Origin: Piscinibacter sp.
GTDB taxonomy: Bacteria > Pseudomonadota > Gammaproteobacteria > Burkholderiales > Burkholderiaceae_C
Assembly (NCBI RefSeq): GCF_047600445.1
Contig: NZ_JASGKT010000001.1
Location: 454,853 to 518,852, forward strand
Direction of reading: 5' to 3'
Length of the DNA: 64,000 nt
Shown here: one piece after another, positions 18,589 through 31,278 of the stretch
Layout of the letters: each line of letters begins with the position of its first letter
How positions within the stretch are numbered: position 1 is the first letter of the stretch
Notes under the pieces: model-generated
What the model saw: only the letters and a program-made list of their open reading frames with translations
The model's database searches: none
Told to the model about the DNA's origin: nothing
Program-made: the position numbers and the translations under genes

Positions 18589-18604
18589 AATCAAACGTTT
18601 GATT
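18589..18604. promoter_or_regulatory. Perfect 16-bp palindrome AATCAAACGTTTGATT (candidate TetR operator)
   Basis: Lies 22 nt upstream of the tetR start, in an unusually A+T-rich intergenic region. Confidence 0.55.
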
Positions 18605-18619
18605 GAAATGGATTGGTAT

Positions 18620-18653
18620 AATGAAAATTAATCAGTGTGAGCACCGGCTCACA
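18620..18653 (-). terminator. Candidate intrinsic terminator of the 362-aa orphan gene
   Basis: On the minus strand, TGTGAGC-cggt-GCTCACA overlaps the stop codon and is followed by ACTGATTAATTTTCATT. Confidence 0.5.
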
Positions 18654-19737
18654 TCAAAGGCAGCGTCGCCTGGTGCGGCATGGCAAACGGCCGCCGCGCC
18701 ACCACCGCATGCGGCACGTAGCCGCGCGAATCGAGGTTCCAGCCCTCGGTGGCCTGGGCGGTGCCGATCTGCTCGATGCGCTGCGTCGCCAGCCCCTTGG
18801 CGGCGGCGCGCGCCAGCAGCGCTTCGCACTGCGCCGGCGTCAGCAGCCGGGCGAAGGCGCGCCAGCGCTTCATCACCAGCGGATTGCGCCAGGCGTCTTC
18901 GACCGCCCAGCGGGCGCGCTGCGGCTCGTCGCAGCGGCCGGCCTCCAGCACGCGCGGCAGCAGCGCGTGGAAGAACATCTGGAAGGCGCGCCGCGCCGGC
19001 TTGCCGGGCAGCAGCACCTCGAAGCGCGCGATGCGCTGGCTCCAGCCCGCCGTGAGCAACTGGCGGCTCACGAAGGCCTGCACCGCCTGCACCGGGTTGA
19101 ACAGGCGCAGGCGGTTCGGCGGCAGCACCAGCAGCGGCAGCGCACTCGCCTCCTCGTGCGACAGCGGCTCGACGAAGCTGCACAGCACCGCGACGCGCGC
19201 CCACTGCGCCACCGTCAGCCCGCCGCCCGCGCCGGCGCGGGCGGTTTCCAGGTCGCGCACGATGCGCAGCGCGTCGCGGAAGCCGTGCGCCGCCTTGGCG
19301 TGGTTGGCCTGGGTGGACATCATCACGAGGTTGCCGGCGGCGTAGCCGGCGTCGTTGCGCACGCGGTCGACCGAGGCGTCGCTGCCTTGCAGCGTGGCGG
19401 CCGACAGCGCGATGCGCGTCACCGGGCAGTGGCTGGCCTCGATCTGCCGCAGGTGGCTGGGCGTGACCTGCATCAGCTCGACGCTGCGCCCGCGCAGCCA
19501 GGCGTGCAGCCGCAGTTGCAGCCACTTGCGCACGTGGCGCGTCGGCATCAGCGTGCGCGTGCCGAAGGTGGCCGCGCCGGCGCGCAGGCCGTCGCGCAGG
19601 CTGGAGGCCTCGTCGGCGTACGGCGCCGGCGGCTGCACGCCGTGGTGGGCGTAGTCCCAGCCCAGCTCGAAGCCGATGCGGTCGAGCGCGGTCAGCGTGG
19701 TGGCGGGGCAGGTGTCGTGGGTGAAGGTGGTGGTCAT
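18649..19737 (-). CDS. Hypothetical 362-aa protein with a degenerate HNH-like (beta-beta-alpha-Me) motif
   Basis: Normal amino-acid composition, unlike the overlapping shadow ORFs, and its own terminator. Residues about 103-148 read HCPVTRIAL-x11-SVDRVRNDAGYAAGNLVMMSTQANHAK. The rest is unassignable. Confidence 0.65.
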   Translation of the reverse strand: MTTTFTHDTCPATTLTALDRIGFELGWDYAHHGVQPPAPYADEASSLRDGLRAGAATFGTRTLMPTRHVRKWLQLRLHAWLRGRSVELMQVTPSHLRQIEASHCPVTRIALSAATLQGSDASVDRVRNDAGYAAGNLVMMSTQANHAKAAHGFRDALRIVRDLETARAGAGGGLTVAQWARVAVLCSFVEPLSHEEASALPLLVLPPNRLRLFNPVQAVQAFVSRQLLTAGWSQRIARFEVLLPGKPARRAFQMFFHALLPRVLEAGRCDEPQRARWAVEDAWRNPLVMKRWRAFARLLTPAQCEALLARAAAKGLATQRIEQIGTAQATEGWNLDSRGYVPHAVVARRPFAMPHQATLPLM

Positions 19738-19797
19738 GGTCGGGTTCCCGGTGGGCGCCGCGGGCCGCGGCAGGCCAATGCAGTGTTACGGCCGGGT

Positions 19798-19814
19798 GGC
19801 TCAGGGGATGAGCC
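19798..19814. promoter_or_regulatory. Palindrome GGCTCA-gggga-TGAGCC in the divergent promoter region
   Basis: Perfect 6-bp arms. It shares its arms with the site at 19854-19870. Confidence 0.45.
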
Positions 19815-19853
19815 AGCGGCGCCGCGCGAAGCCGGGGTAAGCTCGCCCGGGCA

Positions 19854-19870
19854 GGCTCACGCCGTGAGCC
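19854..19870. promoter_or_regulatory. Palindrome GGCTCAC-gcc-GTGAGCC in the divergent promoter region
   Basis: Perfect 7-bp arms, 25 nt upstream of the WYL-regulator ATG. Centre-to-centre distance to the first palindrome is 56 bp. Confidence 0.45.
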
Positions 19871-19894
19871 ACCGGCAGGATCCGAGCACGACCG

Positions 19895-20893
19895 ATGGAC
19901 CGCACCGAACGCTTCTACAAGATCGAGATGCTGCTCAGGAGCCGCGGCAGCGTCGGCTTCGCCGCGCTGCGCGAGGAGCTGGCCGTCTCGCCCGCGACGC
20001 TCAAGCGCGACCTGCAATACCTGCGCGACCGGCTGTACGCGCCCATCGTCTACGACGCCTTCGACAAGGGCTACCGCTTCGACAGCGGCGCCGCCGCGCC
20101 GCGCGGCGCGCGCCACGAGCTGCCCGGCCTGTGGTTCAGCGAGCACGAGATCCACGCGCTGCTGACCATGCACCAGTTGCTCGCGGGCCTGGACGACGAC
20201 GGCGTGCTGTCGCGCCACCTGCAGCCGCTGCTGGAGCGGCTGCAAGGACTGATCGGCGCCGACGCCGCCGAGTCGCGCGAGCTGATGCGGCGCATCAAGG
20301 TGATCGGCACTGCGCGCCGGCGCGTGCCCAGCCGCTGGTTCGAACTGCTGGGCAGCGCGCTGCTGCAGCGCAAGCGCGTGCGGCTGCGCTACTTCAAGCG
20401 CAGCGACCGGCGCGAGAGCGAACGCGAGGTCTCGCCGCAGCGCCTGGTGCACTACCGCGCCACCTGGTACCTGGACGCCTGGTGCCACCGCAGCGACGCG
20501 CTGCGCCGCTTCGCGCTCGACGCGGTGCGCGAGGCCGGCGTGCTCGACGCCCGGGCGAAGAGCCTGCCGCTGCGCGAGCTGGAGGCGGCGCTGGACGCCG
20601 GCTACGGCATCTACGGCGCCAGCGGCGCGAAGCTGAAGTGGGCCACGCTGCGCTTCGTGCCCGACGCCGCGCAGTGGGTGGCCAGCGAGGAGTGGCATCC
20701 GCAGCAGAAGTCGCGCCACCTGAGCGACGGCCGCTACGAGCTGCAGGTGCCCTATGCCGACGCCACCGAGCTGTCGATGGACATCCTGCGCCACGGCGAC
20801 AGCGTGCAGGTGGTGGGTGACAAGGCGCTGGCCGCCGCGATCGCGCAGCGGCTGCGGCGCGCCGCGGCGCAGTACCGAGAACACCCCGAGTGA
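19895..20893 (+). CDS. WYL-domain transcriptional regulator (HTH-WYL-WCX architecture)
   Basis: 332 aa. N-terminal HTH: FAALREELAVSPATLKRDLQYLRD. WYL core: SPQRLVHYRATWYLDAWCHRSDALRRFALD. C-terminal WCX-like region: ...DGRYELQVPYADATELSMDILRHGDSVQVV. Confidence 0.85.
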   Translation: MDRTERFYKIEMLLRSRGSVGFAALREELAVSPATLKRDLQYLRDRLYAPIVYDAFDKGYRFDSGAAAPRGARHELPGLWFSEHEIHALLTMHQLLAGLDDDGVLSRHLQPLLERLQGLIGADAAESRELMRRIKVIGTARRRVPSRWFELLGSALLQRKRVRLRYFKRSDRRESEREVSPQRLVHYRATWYLDAWCHRSDALRRFALDAVREAGVLDARAKSLPLRELEAALDAGYGIYGASGAKLKWATLRFVPDAAQWVASEEWHPQQKSRHLSDGRYELQVPYADATELSMDILRHGDSVQVVGDKALAAAIAQRLRRAAAQYREHPE

Positions 20894-20982
20894 CCGCATG
20901 CGCCGCGCGGGCTAGCATGGTTCTTGCGGCGGCCACCAGCCGCCTCAATCCCTTGTTCACCCCTCACCGAGGAACACTCTCC

Positions 20983-21867
20983 ATGCGCAGACTCTCTCTC
21001 TCGCTCATCGCCGTCGCCTGTGCCCTGCCGTTCGCGGCCCAAGCGCAATCCACGCTCGACAAGGTCAAGGCCAGCGGCAGCATCGGCGTGGCCTACCGCG
21101 AGTCGTCGATCCCGTTCAGCTACCTCGACGACAAGGCGCAGCCCACCGGCTTCGGCTGGGAGATCTGCGGCAAGATCGTCGACGAGGTGAAGAAGGCCAC
21201 CGGCCGCGCCGACCTGAAGGTCACCACGCAGGCGGTGACCTCGGCCAACCGCATTCCGCTGCTGGCGAACGGCACCATCGACATCGAGTGCGGCTCCACC
21301 ACCAACAACAGCGAGCGCGCCAAGCAGGTGGCCTTCGCGACCAACTATTTCTACACCGGCACGCGCTTCCTGGTGAAGGCCGGCACGGCGGTCAAGACGC
21401 TGGCCGACCTGAAGGGCAAGACGGTGGTCTCGACCACGGGCACCACGAACTTCAAGATCATCCGCTCGCTCAACGACGAGCAGAAGCTCGGCATCGACCT
21501 GATCGGCGCGAAAGACCACGCCGAGGCCGCGCTGCTGGTGCAAAGCGGCCGCGCGGTGGCCTTCGCGATGGACGACATCCTGCTGTACGGCCTGAAGGCC
21601 AGCGCCGCGAACCCGGCCGAGCTGGCCGTGGTGGGCGACCCGATCCAGGTCGAGCCCTACGCGATCATGCTGCGCAAGGACGACCCGGCATTCAAGAAGC
21701 TGGTCGACGACACGCTGGCCACCATGATGAAGAGCGGCGAGTTCGAGCGGCTCTACAAGAAGTGGTTCGAGTCGCCGATCCCGCCCAAGGGCATCAACCT
21801 GCAGGCGCCGATGAGCCAGGAGCTGAAGGACAACCTCAAGGCCTTGTCGGACAAGCCGGCGACTTGA
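20983..21867 (+). CDS. Amino-acid ABC transporter substrate-binding protein (Glu/Asp GltI-like), orphan
   Basis: Start taken at MRRLSLSLIAVACALPFAAQA (signal peptide). The body is SBP_bac_3-like (GVAYRESSIPFSY..., GTIDIECGSTTNN.ER...). No permease or ATPase gene is adjacent. Confidence 0.88.
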   Translation: MRRLSLSLIAVACALPFAAQAQSTLDKVKASGSIGVAYRESSIPFSYLDDKAQPTGFGWEICGKIVDEVKKATGRADLKVTTQAVTSANRIPLLANGTIDIECGSTTNNSERAKQVAFATNYFYTGTRFLVKAGTAVKTLADLKGKTVVSTTGTTNFKIIRSLNDEQKLGIDLIGAKDHAEAALLVQSGRAVAFAMDDILLYGLKASAANPAELAVVGDPIQVEPYAIMLRKDDPAFKKLVDDTLATMMKSGEFERLYKKWFESPIPPKGINLQAPMSQELKDNLKALSDKPAT

Positions 21868-29413: not shown

Positions 29414-30453
29414 GGCGCGGCGCGCGCGCCGTGCAGCCCGGCGCGCAGCGGGTCGGCGGCGACGCGCTCGCCCGGGTTCAGGCCGGCCAGCACCTCGACG
29501 CGCCCGCCGGCCGCCGCGGCGACACGCACCGCGCGCAGCGCGAAGCCCTGCGGCGTGGCGACGTAGACGGCGGTCAGCTCGCCGCGCCGCAGCACGGCGC
29601 CGGCCGGCAGGCTGGGGCGCCCGGCCGCGCCCTCGGCGCGCAGTCCGGCGGCGCGCACGCGCAGCGACTGGCCGGGGCGCGCGCCGTTCGCCTCGGCCGG
29701 CAGCTCGAGGCGCCATTCGATCGTCTGCGACACCGGGTCGGCGGCGGGCAGCAGCTCGCGCGCGCCGGGTTCGAGCGCGCGACCGTCGGGCAGCAACACG
29801 CGAACCTCGCCGGCCGCCGCCAGCGCCGCGGCGCGCGAGGCCGGCACCTGCACCACGGCGCGCAGGCGGCCGGGTTCGTACAGCGTCAGCAGCGCCCGGC
29901 CGGGCAGCGCGAGGTCGCCGACTTCGACGTGCGTGGCGCTGACCACCGCGTCGTAGGGCGCGAGCACCTCGGCATGGCCTTGCGCCAGCGCGGCCTGGGC
30001 GCGCGCGGCGCGCGCCCGGTCCAACCCGGCGCGCGCCGCCTGGGCCTGCGTCTCGGCGCTGTCCACCGCGGCCTGGCTGATGAAGCCGCTCCTGTTCAGG
30101 TCGCGGCTGCGCGTCAGCGCCACCTCGGCCAGGCGCGCCTCGGCTTCGGCCTGCGTCACCGCGGCGTCGCTCTGCGCCACGCCGGCGCGGCTGTCGCGGT
30201 CGTCGGTGCGCAGCAGCGGCTGGCCGCGCCGCACGCGCTCGCCGGCGCGCACGCGCAGCGCCAGCACGTTGCCGCCGGTCTGCGCGGTCAGCGTCGCCTG
30301 GCGCACCGGCTGCAGCACGCCGTCGAACTCGGCCGTGGCGCCGCCGCCGCCGGCGGCGACCGCGATGGTCGGCACGCCGACCGGCTCGGCGGCGTGGGCG
30401 CCGGCGGCGAGCAGCGAGGCGGCGAGCAGGAGTTTCATGGCGGCACGGTTCAT
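29410..30453 (-). CDS. RND efflux periplasmic adaptor (membrane fusion protein)
   Basis: 347 aa with a signal peptide (MKLLLAASLLAAGAHA) and HlyD-like lipoyl, hairpin and barrel regions. The start may be Met1 or Met6. Confidence 0.85.
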   Translation of the reverse strand: MNRAAMKLLLAASLLAAGAHAAEPVGVPTIAVAAGGGGATAEFDGVLQPVRQATLTAQTGGNVLALRVRAGERVRRGQPLLRTDDRDSRAGVAQSDAAVTQAEAEARLAEVALTRSRDLNRSGFISQAAVDSAETQAQAARAGLDRARAARAQAALAQGHAEVLAPYDAVVSATHVEVGDLALPGRALLTLYEPGRLRAVVQVPASRAAALAAAGEVRVLLPDGRALEPGARELLPAADPVSQTIEWRLELPAEANGARPGQSLRVRAAGLRAEGAAGRPSLPAGAVLRRGELTAVYVATPQGFALRAVRVAAAAGGRVEVLAGLNPGERVAADPLRAGLHGARAAP

Positions 30454-30486
30454 ATACAGTATGGAGTATATGCCCTGTAGGGTATG
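30452..30486. promoter_or_regulatory. A+T-rich operator-like region: ATATAC-N8-GTATAT overlapping ATGCCCTGTAGGGTAT
   Basis: An island of A+T in a 70% G+C context, lying exactly between the divergent starts at 30453 (-) and 30484 (+). An interrupted G/C tract (CCC-tgta-GGG) is flanked by AT-rich inverted arms, which is the architecture of CsoR/RcnR-family operators. Confidence 0.5.
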
Positions 30487-31278
30487 TGTGGCAAGCGGGC
30501 CGGCCGGCTTCGCGCTACGCTGCGGGCCGTGCCGACGCCGCCCGAACCGACCCCGTCCTCACCGCCGCTGGCCGCCTCGGCGGCGCACCAGCGGCGCCTG
30601 CGCGAGGTGTGGCGCTCGGCCGGCTGGCCCTGCCAGGACCTGATCGAAGCCGAGCTGCTCGCCGCCGGGCTGCTGGAGCGCGTGCGCCACGGCAGCGGCC
30701 ACGAGACGCTGCGTGTCACCGACGGCGGCGTCGCCGCGCTGGCCGCCACGCTGGCGCGCAACCGCGCGCGGCGCGGCGCGCACGAGGCGCTGGTCGGGCG
30801 CGTGGCGCGCGAGATGACACGCGCCGGCCGCATCGCCTGGCGCGGGCTGTCGCTGCGCGCGCACGTCGAGGGCGCCGGGGACGGCGGGGCGGGCCGCTGG
30901 GTGATGGCGATGCCCGACGTCTTCTCGATCCGCCACACCACGGTGGAAGACTGGCTGGAGCCGGCCGCGCACGAGGTCAAGGTGACGCGCGCCGACCTGC
31001 TGTCCGACCTGCGCCAGCCCTGCAAGCGCGAGGCCTATCGCATGCTGTCCAGCCAATGCTGGTACGTGCTCAAACAAGGCATCGCCGATGCCGACGAGGT
31101 GCCGATGGAATTCGGAGTGATGTTCGCCGGCCCGGCCGGCGCGCTCGAGGTGGCGCGGCCGGCGCCGCGCCGCGCGATGCGCCTGCCGCTGGCCACCTGG
31201 ATGGCGCTGGCGCGCGCGACGGCCGAGCCGGCGCTCGACGACGAGGCGCAGGCCTGGCTGGGCGGGAGCAGCGCATGA
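30484..31278 (+). CDS. Hypothetical protein with a PD-(D/E)xK, MmcB-like C-terminal region
   Basis: ...MPDVFSI...AHEVKVTRADLLSDLRQPCKREAYRMLSSQCWYVL...EVPMEFGVMFA follows the D...E-x-K...K..Y pattern of the MmcB/DUF1052 family. The start is uncertain. The stop overlaps the next ATG (ATGA). Confidence 0.5.
   Translation: MCGKRAGRLRATLRAVPTPPEPTPSSPPLAASAAHQRRLREVWRSAGWPCQDLIEAELLAAGLLERVRHGSGHETLRVTDGGVAALAATLARNRARRGAHEALVGRVAREMTRAGRIAWRGLSLRAHVEGAGDGGAGRWVMAMPDVFSIRHTTVEDWLEPAAHEVKVTRADLLSDLRQPCKREAYRMLSSQCWYVLKQGIADADEVPMEFGVMFAGPAGALEVARPAPRRAMRLPLATWMALARATAEPALDDEAQAWLGGSSA

Follow-up and report, generated by a model that had tools for sequence, protein, structure and literature searches.

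A WYL-type regulator and a divergent, histidine-less HNH-like gene in Piscinibacter: a conserved pair and candidate damage-response module

The locus

A 64-kb stretch of the genome of a Piscinibacter sp. (contig NZ_JASGKT010000001.1, positions 454,853 to 518,852 of the forward strand), here called the window and supplying the coordinates used throughout, carries two genes arranged head-to-head. One encodes a WYL transcription factor of 332 amino acids (aa), the other a protein of 362 aa, referred to in what follows as the effector. The two divergent open reading frames (ORFs) are present as described in an original prediction made from the letters alone, which took the effector for an orphan with a degenerate HNH-like core and the pair for a compact, regulator-gated, nuclease-like module, possibly of defence, matching no named system. 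Their G+C content (0.74 for the effector and 0.725 for the WYL gene, against 0.716 for the window) is native, as had also been claimed. Here, I show that the two genes are kept together across several genera of Burkholderiales (Betaproteobacteria of freshwater and soil), that the region between them holds a conserved 23-bp palindrome, and that the effector family carries a histidine-less HNH-like motif shared with phage and plasmid genes. The pair looks like a new damage-response module, being neither an orphan nor a defence island. Related loci and representative sequences are labelled L and P, respectively, followed by a number.

A conserved gene pair

In a census of one genome per species, comprising 71 effector loci, the WYL gene is divergent from and adjacent to the effector gene in 66, down to an effector identity of 45%; of the five remaining loci, one is cut by a contig end. 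The reverse census, for which the WYL protein was used to retrieve 80 loci from metagenomes, is in agreement: nearly all loci with usable upstream DNA and a WYL identity of at least 57% carry a divergent effector, L132 and L142 being the exceptions. The question raised by the original prediction, namely whether homologues of the effector are consistently paired with a WYL gene, is therefore answered positively in both directions. The two partners evolve at different rates, the WYL protein retaining 58-87% identity across genera versus an effector identity down to 45-50% (in L076, 61% versus 36%).

The effector is far from being an orphan. At least 1482 homologues, all of them 'hypothetical', were retrieved from a collection of 5.8 billion proteins, and 742 representatives, none with a Pfam domain, come from a library in which sequences are grouped at 50% identity. 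Sources with a name comprise Piscinibacter, Albitalea, Rhizobacter, Methylibium, Ideonella, Roseateles, Paucibacter and Mitsuaria. The WYL family is in turn broader than the pair, since a distant sister clade (53-60% identity) has no effector and lies beside unrelated genes (L132, L142, L147, L148, L151, L154-L157). Members of this sister clade keep the motifs WYLDAWCH and RTERxYRI; their neighbours include a formate-tetrahydrofolate ligase, an MFS transporter, a UbiH-like monooxygenase and an HD-domain protein, as well as an integrase in L154.

Neighbouring ORFs were clustered and the flanking genes named by eye from their translations. The tetR and binding-protein flanks of the window are kept only in the closest relatives, and the pair as a whole occupies five or more distinct settings of housekeeping genes, with synteny inside each genus; the genes concerned include amino-acid binding protein, tetR-RND efflux, queuosine, cobalamin, protocatechuate dioxygenase (aromatic catabolism) and DAHP synthase/TldD. 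The pair was present on no phage or plasmid record searched. The interpretation put forward here, tentatively and with the chances falling slightly on the doubtful side, is that of a stress module of two genes passed on vertically within Burkholderiales of the Sphaerotilaceae type (Piscinibacter, Rhizobacter, Methylibium, Ideonella and the Roseateles/Paucibacter/Mitsuaria group).

The regulator

Pfam recognises in the regulator a WYL domain (residues 149-214; 70.6 bits, cut-off 21.8; E = 1.1e-19), a WCX domain (residues 249-324; 47.7 bits, cut-off 23.9; E = 2e-12) and, at the amino terminus, HTH_DeoR (residues 7-52; 23.0 bits, cut-off 21; E = 6.9e-5), the same residues bringing HTH_11 just below its cut-off of 25 (22.4 bits; E = 1.1e-4). 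The canonical HTH-WYL-WCX architecture originally assigned to this protein is thereby borne out, and the WYL model of PADLOC matches it as well (2e-35).

Among solved structures, the closest are PafBC (6sj9; 4e-18) and PafC (6e-11), with weaker matches to fragments of DriD (about 1e-4 to 6e-4), to CapW-like proteins and to BrxR (5e-3). Residues W191-Y192-L193, R204, F206 and R177 of the regulator align with Y192, R204, W206 and R178 of DriD, which are reported to contact single-stranded DNA (ssDNA) (PMC9186387); DriD K202 aligns with an alanine. Because the contact residues align, and by analogy with DriD, PafBC, SiwR and CapW, the ligand of the regulator is most probably ssDNA.

Operators and promoters

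Two near-identical palindromes had been noticed between the genes, GGCTCA-N5-TGAGCC at 19798-19814 and GGCTCAC-N3-GTGAGCC at 19854-19870, with centres 56 bp apart. Both sites and their spacing stand, and they are the only perfect matches in the window, where 0.37 would be expected by chance even with one mismatch; however, they had been drawn too short, for the aligned intergenic regions of related loci delimit a 23-bp operator palindrome, GGTGGCTCA-N5-TGAGCCACC. Its core, CTCA-N5-TGAG, recurs in 64 of 66 such regions, making it a phylogenetically conserved element and, as predicted from these alignments, the likely binding site of the WYL protein. Roseateles has a single copy; the groups of Piscinibacter, Methylibium, Rhizobacter and Ideonella have two, 56-70 bp apart. 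GCTCA-N5-TGAGC occurs 100 times in 722 kb of related loci, 98 of them in the effector-WYL intergenic region, whereas some 0.1 occurrences would be expected by chance across the 66 intergenic regions, as estimated from base composition.

The effector-proximal operator (operator A in the window) is then always followed, exactly 12 nt from its TGAG, by a hexamer nAnACT, more rarely nAnAAT or nAnAGT. The variants observed are AACACT, GACACT, AATACT, GAGACT, CACACT and AACAAT, with A2 and T6 conserved in all operator-aligned loci. Taking this hexamer for the -10 element, and assuming that it spans -12 to -7, the centre of operator A would lie near -31. The position of a -35 element lands on the variable N5 of operator A, and the effector promoter accordingly seems to have none; a scan of the region with the sigma-70 consensus found no full promoter. 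Such a geometry, as read from the sequence, points to the activation of a damage-response gene rather than to the repression of a toxic defence gene.

On the WYL side, a GGGGTA(A/T)GCT block (gagcttacccc or gagcatacccc on the other strand) is conserved between the two operators of related loci. As this block is the likely -10 element of the WYL gene, operator B would lie near +12 of its promoter. Most loci of Piscinibacter, Methylibium, Rhizobacter and Ideonella have a second site close to the WYL gene, at 17-41 nt from its start, and operator B is likely to serve autoregulation. A case in point for a dedicated control of the effector concerns L034 and L057-L059, where no WYL gene is adjacent and the effector is nonetheless preceded by the operator, by the -10 hexamer and by the hairpin of the 5' untranslated region (UTR); there, the regulator presumably acts in trans.

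This UTR hairpin, which would form the extreme 5' end of the predicted effector mRNA, is found at the same place, with differing stems, in Piscinibacter, Methylibium, Rhizobacter, Ideonella and Paucibacter loci (L001-L036, L057-L059). The stems include GCCGC/GCGGC, CGCTGCA/TGCAGCG, GCGCCGG/CCGGCGC, GCTTGA/TCAAGC and GGTCAC/GTGACC, and one aligned stem pair varies as CG, UG, AU, UA and GC; the mean z-score versus shuffled sequences is only -0.7, which lends it modest support. The Rfam scan of the region returned no match. The features of the locus are collected in Table 1.

Table 1. Features of the effector-WYL locus (window coordinates; residues refer to the effector)
Feature	Position	Strand	Basis or remark
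Effector ORF, 362 aa	18649..19737	(-)	ORF call
N-terminal helical domain of effector	about residues 17-81		model
Histidine-less HNH-like beta-beta-alpha core of effector	about residues 85-150 (19288..19485)	(-)	model, PHROG
C-terminal helical domain of effector	about residues 153-313		model
Conserved ATEGW motif of effector	residues 330-334		
Hairpin GTGAGC-ACCG-GCTCAC, weak terminator candidate	18637..18652	(-)	overlaps effector stop codon; poor T-run
Effector 5'-UTR stem-loop GCCGC-GGCCC-GCGGC	19757..19771	(-)	position conserved
Putative -10 hexamer AACACT, effector promoter	19782..19787	(-)	position, A2 and T6 conserved
Operator A, GGTGGCTCA-GGGGA-TGAGCCAGC	19795..19817	.	predicted centre near -31 (effector promoter) and near -44 (WYL promoter)
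Putative -10 hexamer TAAGCT, WYL promoter	19838..19843	(+)	between the operators
Operator B, GCAGGCTCA-CGCCG-TGAGCCACC	19851..19873	.	ends 21 nt before WYL start; about +12 of predicted WYL promoter
WYL regulator ORF (HTH-WYL-WCX transcription factor), 332 aa	19895..20893	(+)	ORF call, Pfam, PADLOC

The regulator and its promoters bear directly on a role in defence, which the original prediction had entertained. In a version modelled on BrxR and CapW, the pair would be an abortive-infection system directed against phages, and its WYL protein would repress a toxic nuclease until phage-derived ssDNA or DNA damage relieves the repression. WYL regulators are known to gate BREX, CBASS and other defence operons, CapW senses ssDNA (PMC11662680), and the PADLOC match of the regulator, the nuclease-like character of the effector, the occurrence of its relatives on phages, plasmids and regions resembling integrative and conjugative elements (ICEs), and the much faster evolution of its sequence in comparison with that of the regulator (45-50% versus 58-65% identity) are all in keeping with such a role. 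However, the effector matches none of the defence-system models of PADLOC-DB 2.0; no defence gene was seen among the flanks of the related loci, which are syntenic at the level of the genus; and to the native G+C content is added the absence of the pair from the mobile-element records mentioned above. The regulator is in turn nearer to the activators PafBC and PafC than to BrxR, and an operator standing in the place of a -35 element fits activation. A defence role is therefore little supported and is regarded here as unlikely.

The effector family and its core

The claim that the effector belongs to no named family holds: the 362-aa protein has no match in Pfam, NCBIfam, PADLOC or the PDB sequences. 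Scans of 61 family members against Pfam and NCBIfam gave nothing meaningful, and neither the family profile nor a profile of the core matched any PDB sequence. A tblastn search of phage records with the window effector was equally negative; in this type of search only a divergent member, P0265, reaches phage genes, weakly and via the core.

An AlphaFold2 model was built from the 61-sequence alignment (predicted local distance difference test, pLDDT, 94.1; predicted template modelling score, pTM, 0.89), the single-sequence model (pLDDT 39) having been discarded. The model places between two helical domains a beta-beta-alpha unit made of strands 120-125 and 137-141 and helix 142-148, with pLDDT above 95, and the effector core as modelled is a beta-beta-alpha-Me (HNH-like) fold. 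The Foldseek search that had been proposed as a check gave superpositions of small phage HNH proteins of the BFVD database on the core (about 100 residues, root-mean-square deviation, rmsd, 1.9-3 A), several giant-virus proteins being also among the matches. In the PDB, the top match of the whole model is PacI, which at E 0.54 and a template modelling (TM) score of 0.49 on the target is not significant.

Profile searches converge on the same core. Residues 76-164 match phrog_3322 ('endonuclease') at E 5e-9, as do 30 of the 61 members (best 1e-15), and further core matches concern phrog_3118 (HNH) and phrog_1035 (endonuclease VII). The N- and C-terminal domains taken alone match no PHROG, and the original view of the helical remainder as novel is upheld, neither domain having detectable relatives by Foldseek against the PDB or by PHROG. 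The residues invariant throughout the family (G26, A30, G50, L73, L174, R181, P201/206/207, W283) lie mostly in these helical domains.

The HNH-like motif, HCPVTRIAL...SVDRVRNDAGYAAGNLVMMSTQANHAK at residues 103-148, is confirmed with Arg125 in the place of the general-base histidine. In the window it reads C104-P105...S122-V-D124-R125-V-R-N128-D...G-Y132-A-A-G135-N136-L137...S141...A-N145-H-A-K148, C104 being the single conserved cysteine of the family. D124, Y132, N136 and N145 are kept in 93 of 119 WYL-linked members, and the window effector is fully intact. Located between the two strands, Y132 never varies among sequences with an intact motif, phage and plasmid relatives included. By analogy with PacI, Asp124 and Asn145 are likely metal ligands and Tyr132, in an omega loop, likely the general base or nucleophile; Arg125 and Lys148 are likely to contact phosphate. 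The PacI-type tyrosine chemistry of Y132 should be regarded as a lead drawn from this analogy.

The pattern S[VI]DR..N..GY..GN[LV]...S..AN.AK is invariant in the aligned phage and plasmid relatives. It is kept on plasmids of Cupriavidus (L158), Caballeronia (L159) and Simplicispira (L160). Together with the metagenome locus L072, these are distant members without a WYL neighbour, surrounded by genes of plasmid or ICE type: a phospholipase-D family protein, two DUF1173, ParB/Srx, MobI(A/C), TraY, a RES-Xre toxin-antitoxin, an ERCC4-HhH nuclease and IscB. Such settings suggest that the family originated from mobile elements.

Small genes of phages, which bear the annotation 'endonuclease' or 'Srd', in full 'postulated decoy of host sigma factor (Srd)', likewise show the motif unchanged, as in phage KBNP1711 and Rhizobium phage RHph_N3_13. 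In the former (L161), the HNH gene of D-R type sits between the halves of a split DNA polymerase, and in the latter (L163) between those of a split ribonucleotide reductase. Sites between the halves of a split gene are typical of free-standing homing endonucleases, and the phage 'Srd' label thus seems to cover probable homing endonucleases. Since D-R in the place of D-H is conserved across the whole clade, plasmid and phage relatives included, it is not a product of local decay, and the word 'degenerate' does not apply: the histidine-less motif is a conserved one, common to phage genes sited like homing endonucleases.

The mobile relatives raise the question whether the effector might be a domesticated or decaying remnant of the homing-endonuclease type, devoid of host function, next to a general WYL regulator that controls only itself. 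Relatives on mobile elements and inside split phage genes, as well as a WYL family broader than the pair, would agree with it. Against it speak full-length, intact effector ORFs in at least five genera, with motifs conserved far outside the core; an operator A and a -10 hexamer that are reserved for the effector and persist at loci from which the WYL gene has moved away; and the absence of any transposase or integrase adjoining the effector in the chromosomal loci. A mere remnant is accordingly very improbable. The endonuclease and HNH matches in PHROG, the modelled fold, the pairing seen from both partners and the conserved operator all sustain what had been proposed at the outset, namely a compact, regulator-gated, nuclease-like unit that belongs to no named system.

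A proposed mechanism and its weighing

The following mechanism builds on the observed pairing, operator conservation, promoter geometry, modelled core fold and motif conservation; to these it adds, by way of proposal, a ligand, activation instead of repression, a substrate and a catalytic activity. The WYL regulator would bind the 23-bp palindrome as a dimer. Loaded with its ligand, probably ssDNA arising from DNA damage or from phage or plasmid replication (as in PafBC, DriD, SiwR and CapW), it would at operator A stand in for the missing -35 element, recruit RNA polymerase and turn on the divergent effector gene, while its binding at operator B, just 3' of the inferred WYL start site, would provide negative autoregulation. 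Once induced, the effector would act on DNA, nicking or cleaving, or at least binding, damaged or foreign molecules, in a damage-induced processing or killing function for which the nuclease BapE, controlled by DriD in Caulobacter, offers a parallel.

The regulatory half of this scheme is probably right. The catalytic, DNA-directed role of the effector is on balance doubtful, albeit a serious candidate. As a whole, a damage-induced WYL activator driving an effector of histidine-less HNH fold merits a confidence just short of even.

Several observations weigh against the scheme, above all against catalysis. The general-base histidine is absent at its position in all 61 representatives and in the 119 WYL-linked sequences (L057 and L059 have a histidine two residues after it), and no Pfam HNH family (HNH, HNH_3, Endonuclease_7 and others) matches any of the 61 members at E up to 1. 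Twenty-six of the 119 WYL-linked members (22%) have lost D124 and/or N145 and are still full-length and WYL-linked, which means that the function of the family at large may not need metal-dependent catalysis; what is common to the entire family may be binding, not cleavage. The losses come from many separate lineages (L027, L060-L064, many metagenome lineages, P0165 and P0270), and among the 50%-identity representatives about three in four are degenerate at the D124/Y132/N136/N145 positions. PacI, on which the tyrosine chemistry is modelled, is matched weakly in fold and not at all in sequence, and its two Cys4 zinc sites are absent here. Lastly, the only characterised relative of the core, T4 Srd, is reported to bind the N-terminal half of RNase E and stimulate it, and not to work as a nuclease (PMC13232886, citing Qi et al. 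2015).

The damage theme of the regulon is likewise no more than suggested. Both out-of-place copies of the operator, and two further copies with one mismatch, lie directly 5' of members of one gene family, here called c22 (L021, at about 1963; L024, about 2579; L026, about 2625; L029, about 2608), with the same 12-nt spacing to an nAnnnT hexamer. The c22 proteins, 230-260 aa long, have an invariant P129-D130...E149-x-K151, the signature of PD-(D/E)xK nucleases, which hints at a nucleic-acid or repair theme. Yet the family is uncharacterised (all of its 5679 homologues are 'hypothetical'), its Pfam match to MmcB-like, at E 0.07, is below threshold, a search of the PDB found no match, and the copy of c22 in the window itself, at 30484-31278 (+), has no operator. 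This copy is preceded by an AT-rich region with short inverted repeats (about 30446-30490).

The exact 23-bp palindrome was also found in 35 IMG/VR viral contigs (L164-L198), all of them devoid of WYL and effector genes. About 20 of these contigs have it across the 3' end of one conserved phage gene (...WWLTD*; TGG TGG CTC ACG GAT TGA GCCACC). The viral copies were rejected as WYL operators and look like a hairpin of unrelated nature.

The same losses of putative catalytic residues bring to the fore another explanation, in which the effector is a non-catalytic modulator resembling Srd: its core would serve as a binding platform, its helical domains would dock on RNase E (reported for T4 Srd) or on RNA polymerase/sigma (in line with the old 'decoy' annotation), and its induction by the WYL protein would reprogramme RNA decay or transcription under DNA stress. 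The members that have lost the putative metal ligands retain operator and regulator, and the location of most family-invariant residues in the helical domains would suit docking. The top BFVD fold matches are the T4-like 'Srd anti-sigma' proteins (about 290 columns, E 3.5e-5); phrog_1400 (Srd) is matched by 8 of the 61 members (best 1.5e-5, core only) and phrog_4592 ('decoy of host sigma70') by 6. T4 Srd is reported to bind RNase E and to stimulate host RNA decay (PMC13232886), and catalytically dead His-Me fingers that still bind do exist, Smad MH1 and Enpp being examples (PMC5714182). On the other side, the motif (D, R, N/D, Y, G, N, S, N, K) is whole in the window and in 78% of the WYL-linked members, at 45 to 100% identity, and is kept in phage genes sited like homing endonucleases. 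Furthermore, the Srd alignments have TM scores of 0.22-0.27 and an rmsd of about 30 A, meaning that only the core truly superposes; the full-length likeness has no sequence backing, given the lack of PHROG matches for the two terminal domains, and phrog_1400 itself reaches only a non-significant E of 0.26 with the window effector. A role of this kind is considered rather unlikely, and a damage-induced activator with a DNA-directed effector is retained as the working mechanism.

A bolder view is that the phage 'Srd / D-R HNH' clade would have in this pair its first member that is cellular, fixed in a chromosome and under regulation, coupling an ssDNA alarm to a histidine-less, tyrosine-dependent nuclease with two new helical domains, whether as a BapE-like, damage-triggered nuclease of self DNA or as an abortive-infection system not recognised before. 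It is improbable as matters stand; if true, its study would reveal the chemistry of the widespread Srd-like genes of phages.

Flanks of the pair

Downstream of the effector, an AT-rich spacer of 54 bp (G+C 0.37) with a 16-bp palindrome of its own divides the gene from the tetR-RND operon. The effector had been credited with its own terminator and with independence from that operon; the independence stands, but the hairpin at its stop codon is only a weak terminator candidate. It is common only to the nearest relative, L003, other relatives having a different hairpin. Its arms, GTGAGC and GCTCAC, had been considered meaningful for their likeness to those of the operators; owing to the reversed orientation of the half-sites, the poor T-run and the sharing with L003 alone, they are no evidence of a shared site. 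For the same orientation of its half-sites, and for its lack of conservation, the hairpin was ruled out as a third operator.

In several Piscinibacter genomes (L001, L002, L005, L007-L010), a strong and conserved hairpin, CCCCTGCTGACACGACG(T/C)TGTCAGCAGGG(G), is found 20-60 nt past the effector stop in the place of the hairpin of the window; it may be an element of the repetitive extragenic palindrome (REP) type or a terminator. The perfect 16-bp palindrome of the spacer between the effector stop codon and tetR, AATCAAACGTTTGATT at 18589-18604, has near-identical counterparts before tetR in L003 and L023 (CAATCAAACGATTGATTG, CAATCAATCGTTTGATTG), and probably serves as the site at which TetR controls the RND efflux operon.

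On the other side, a DUF427 gene of 92-93 aa (Pfam NTP_transf_9, 7.8e-33) lies 3' of the WYL gene, before the next gene, in many relatives (L001, L002, L004, L005, L007-L012 and others). The window has no such gene (20893-20984), its binding-protein ORF directly adjoining the stop codon of the WYL gene.

Significance

In WYL regulators, a second way for bacteria to sense DNA damage or phage attack through ssDNA, independent of LexA, is coming to light. Up to now it is known from few settings: Actinobacteria, Caulobacter, Acinetobacter/Moraxellaceae and defence islands. The present locus would be a clean and minimal example from Betaproteobacteria, in which a single regulator and a single dedicated target are combined with a sharply delimited 23-bp operator and a promoter amenable to testing. 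In addition, the chemistry of the effector would settle whether the histidine-less clade as a whole consists of tyrosine-dependent nucleases or of binding proteins.

Comparison with known systems

A close parallel in organisation is DriD of Caulobacter crescentus, the WYL activator of a response to DNA damage that does not depend on SOS (PMC9186387, PMC13004042), with its targets didA and bapE. In promoters devoid of a -35 element, the sites bound by DriD overlap the -35 position and keep a constant spacing to the -10; a further site, suggestive of autorepression, lies 10 nt before the start codon of driD itself, and bapE is induced about 100-fold (PMC13004042, PMC9186387). The two systems thus share the HTH-WYL-WCX architecture, a palindrome at the -35 position, the fixed distance to the -10, a second site before the regulator start, aligned ssDNA-contact residues and, with bapE among the strongly induced targets, a nuclease or nuclease-like gene under control. 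They differ in that the sequence match is weak, the operator sequence is another one, and the main target here is an adjacent, divergent gene unrelated to DidA.

PafBC of Actinobacteria and SiwR are ssDNA-activated activators that bind just 5' of the -10, in the -26 region (PMC11804915, PMC8635444, PMC10693628); in Mycobacterium smegmatis, SiwR does so before an adjacent operon induced by genotoxic stress (PMC10693628). No solved structure is closer to the regulator than those of PafBC and PafC, and the control of an adjacent operon by SiwR resembles the arrangement described here. In contrast, PafBC has two WYL units, either fused or as a heterodimer, and controls about 150 genes, and the targets of SiwR are DinB/YfiT-like enzymes, whereas the present regulator is a single chain from Proteobacteria with an HNH-like target.

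BrxR and CapW have in common with the regulator the HTH-WYL-WCX fold, the inverted-repeat operators, a neighbouring effector and, for CapW, the sensing of ssDNA (PMC11662680). They are repressors of defence islands (BREX, CBASS), unlike the present regulator with its housekeeping surroundings, distant BrxR match and activator-type geometry.

As for the effector, the phage endonuclease/Srd proteins (phrog_3322, 3118, 1035, 1400 and 4592; T4 Srd) share the pattern CP..(T/G)...S(L/V)DR.(D/N)N..GY..GN(L/V/I)...(S/T)..(A/V)N..K, and the cores superpose at 2-3 A. The phage proteins measure 100-290 aa, in contrast to the 362 aa of the effector with its extra helical domains, its chromosomal location and its WYL control. 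PacI, assigned to His-Me finger group 20, is described in two reviews as having an HNH fold without general-base histidine, an omega-loop tyrosine, and an aspartate and an asparagine that hold a single metal (PMC5714182, PMC4081073). Like the effector it is histidine-less; it is its best PDB fold match, and giant-virus proteins, which dominate group 20, also appear in the BFVD searches, the differences between the two being those set out above.

To sum up, adjacent stress genes under WYL control are already known from DriD, SiwR, PafBC, BrxR and CapW; what is new, as far as the literature and profile libraries searched show, is the effector family, its pairing with a WYL regulator, the operator and the lineage in which they occur.

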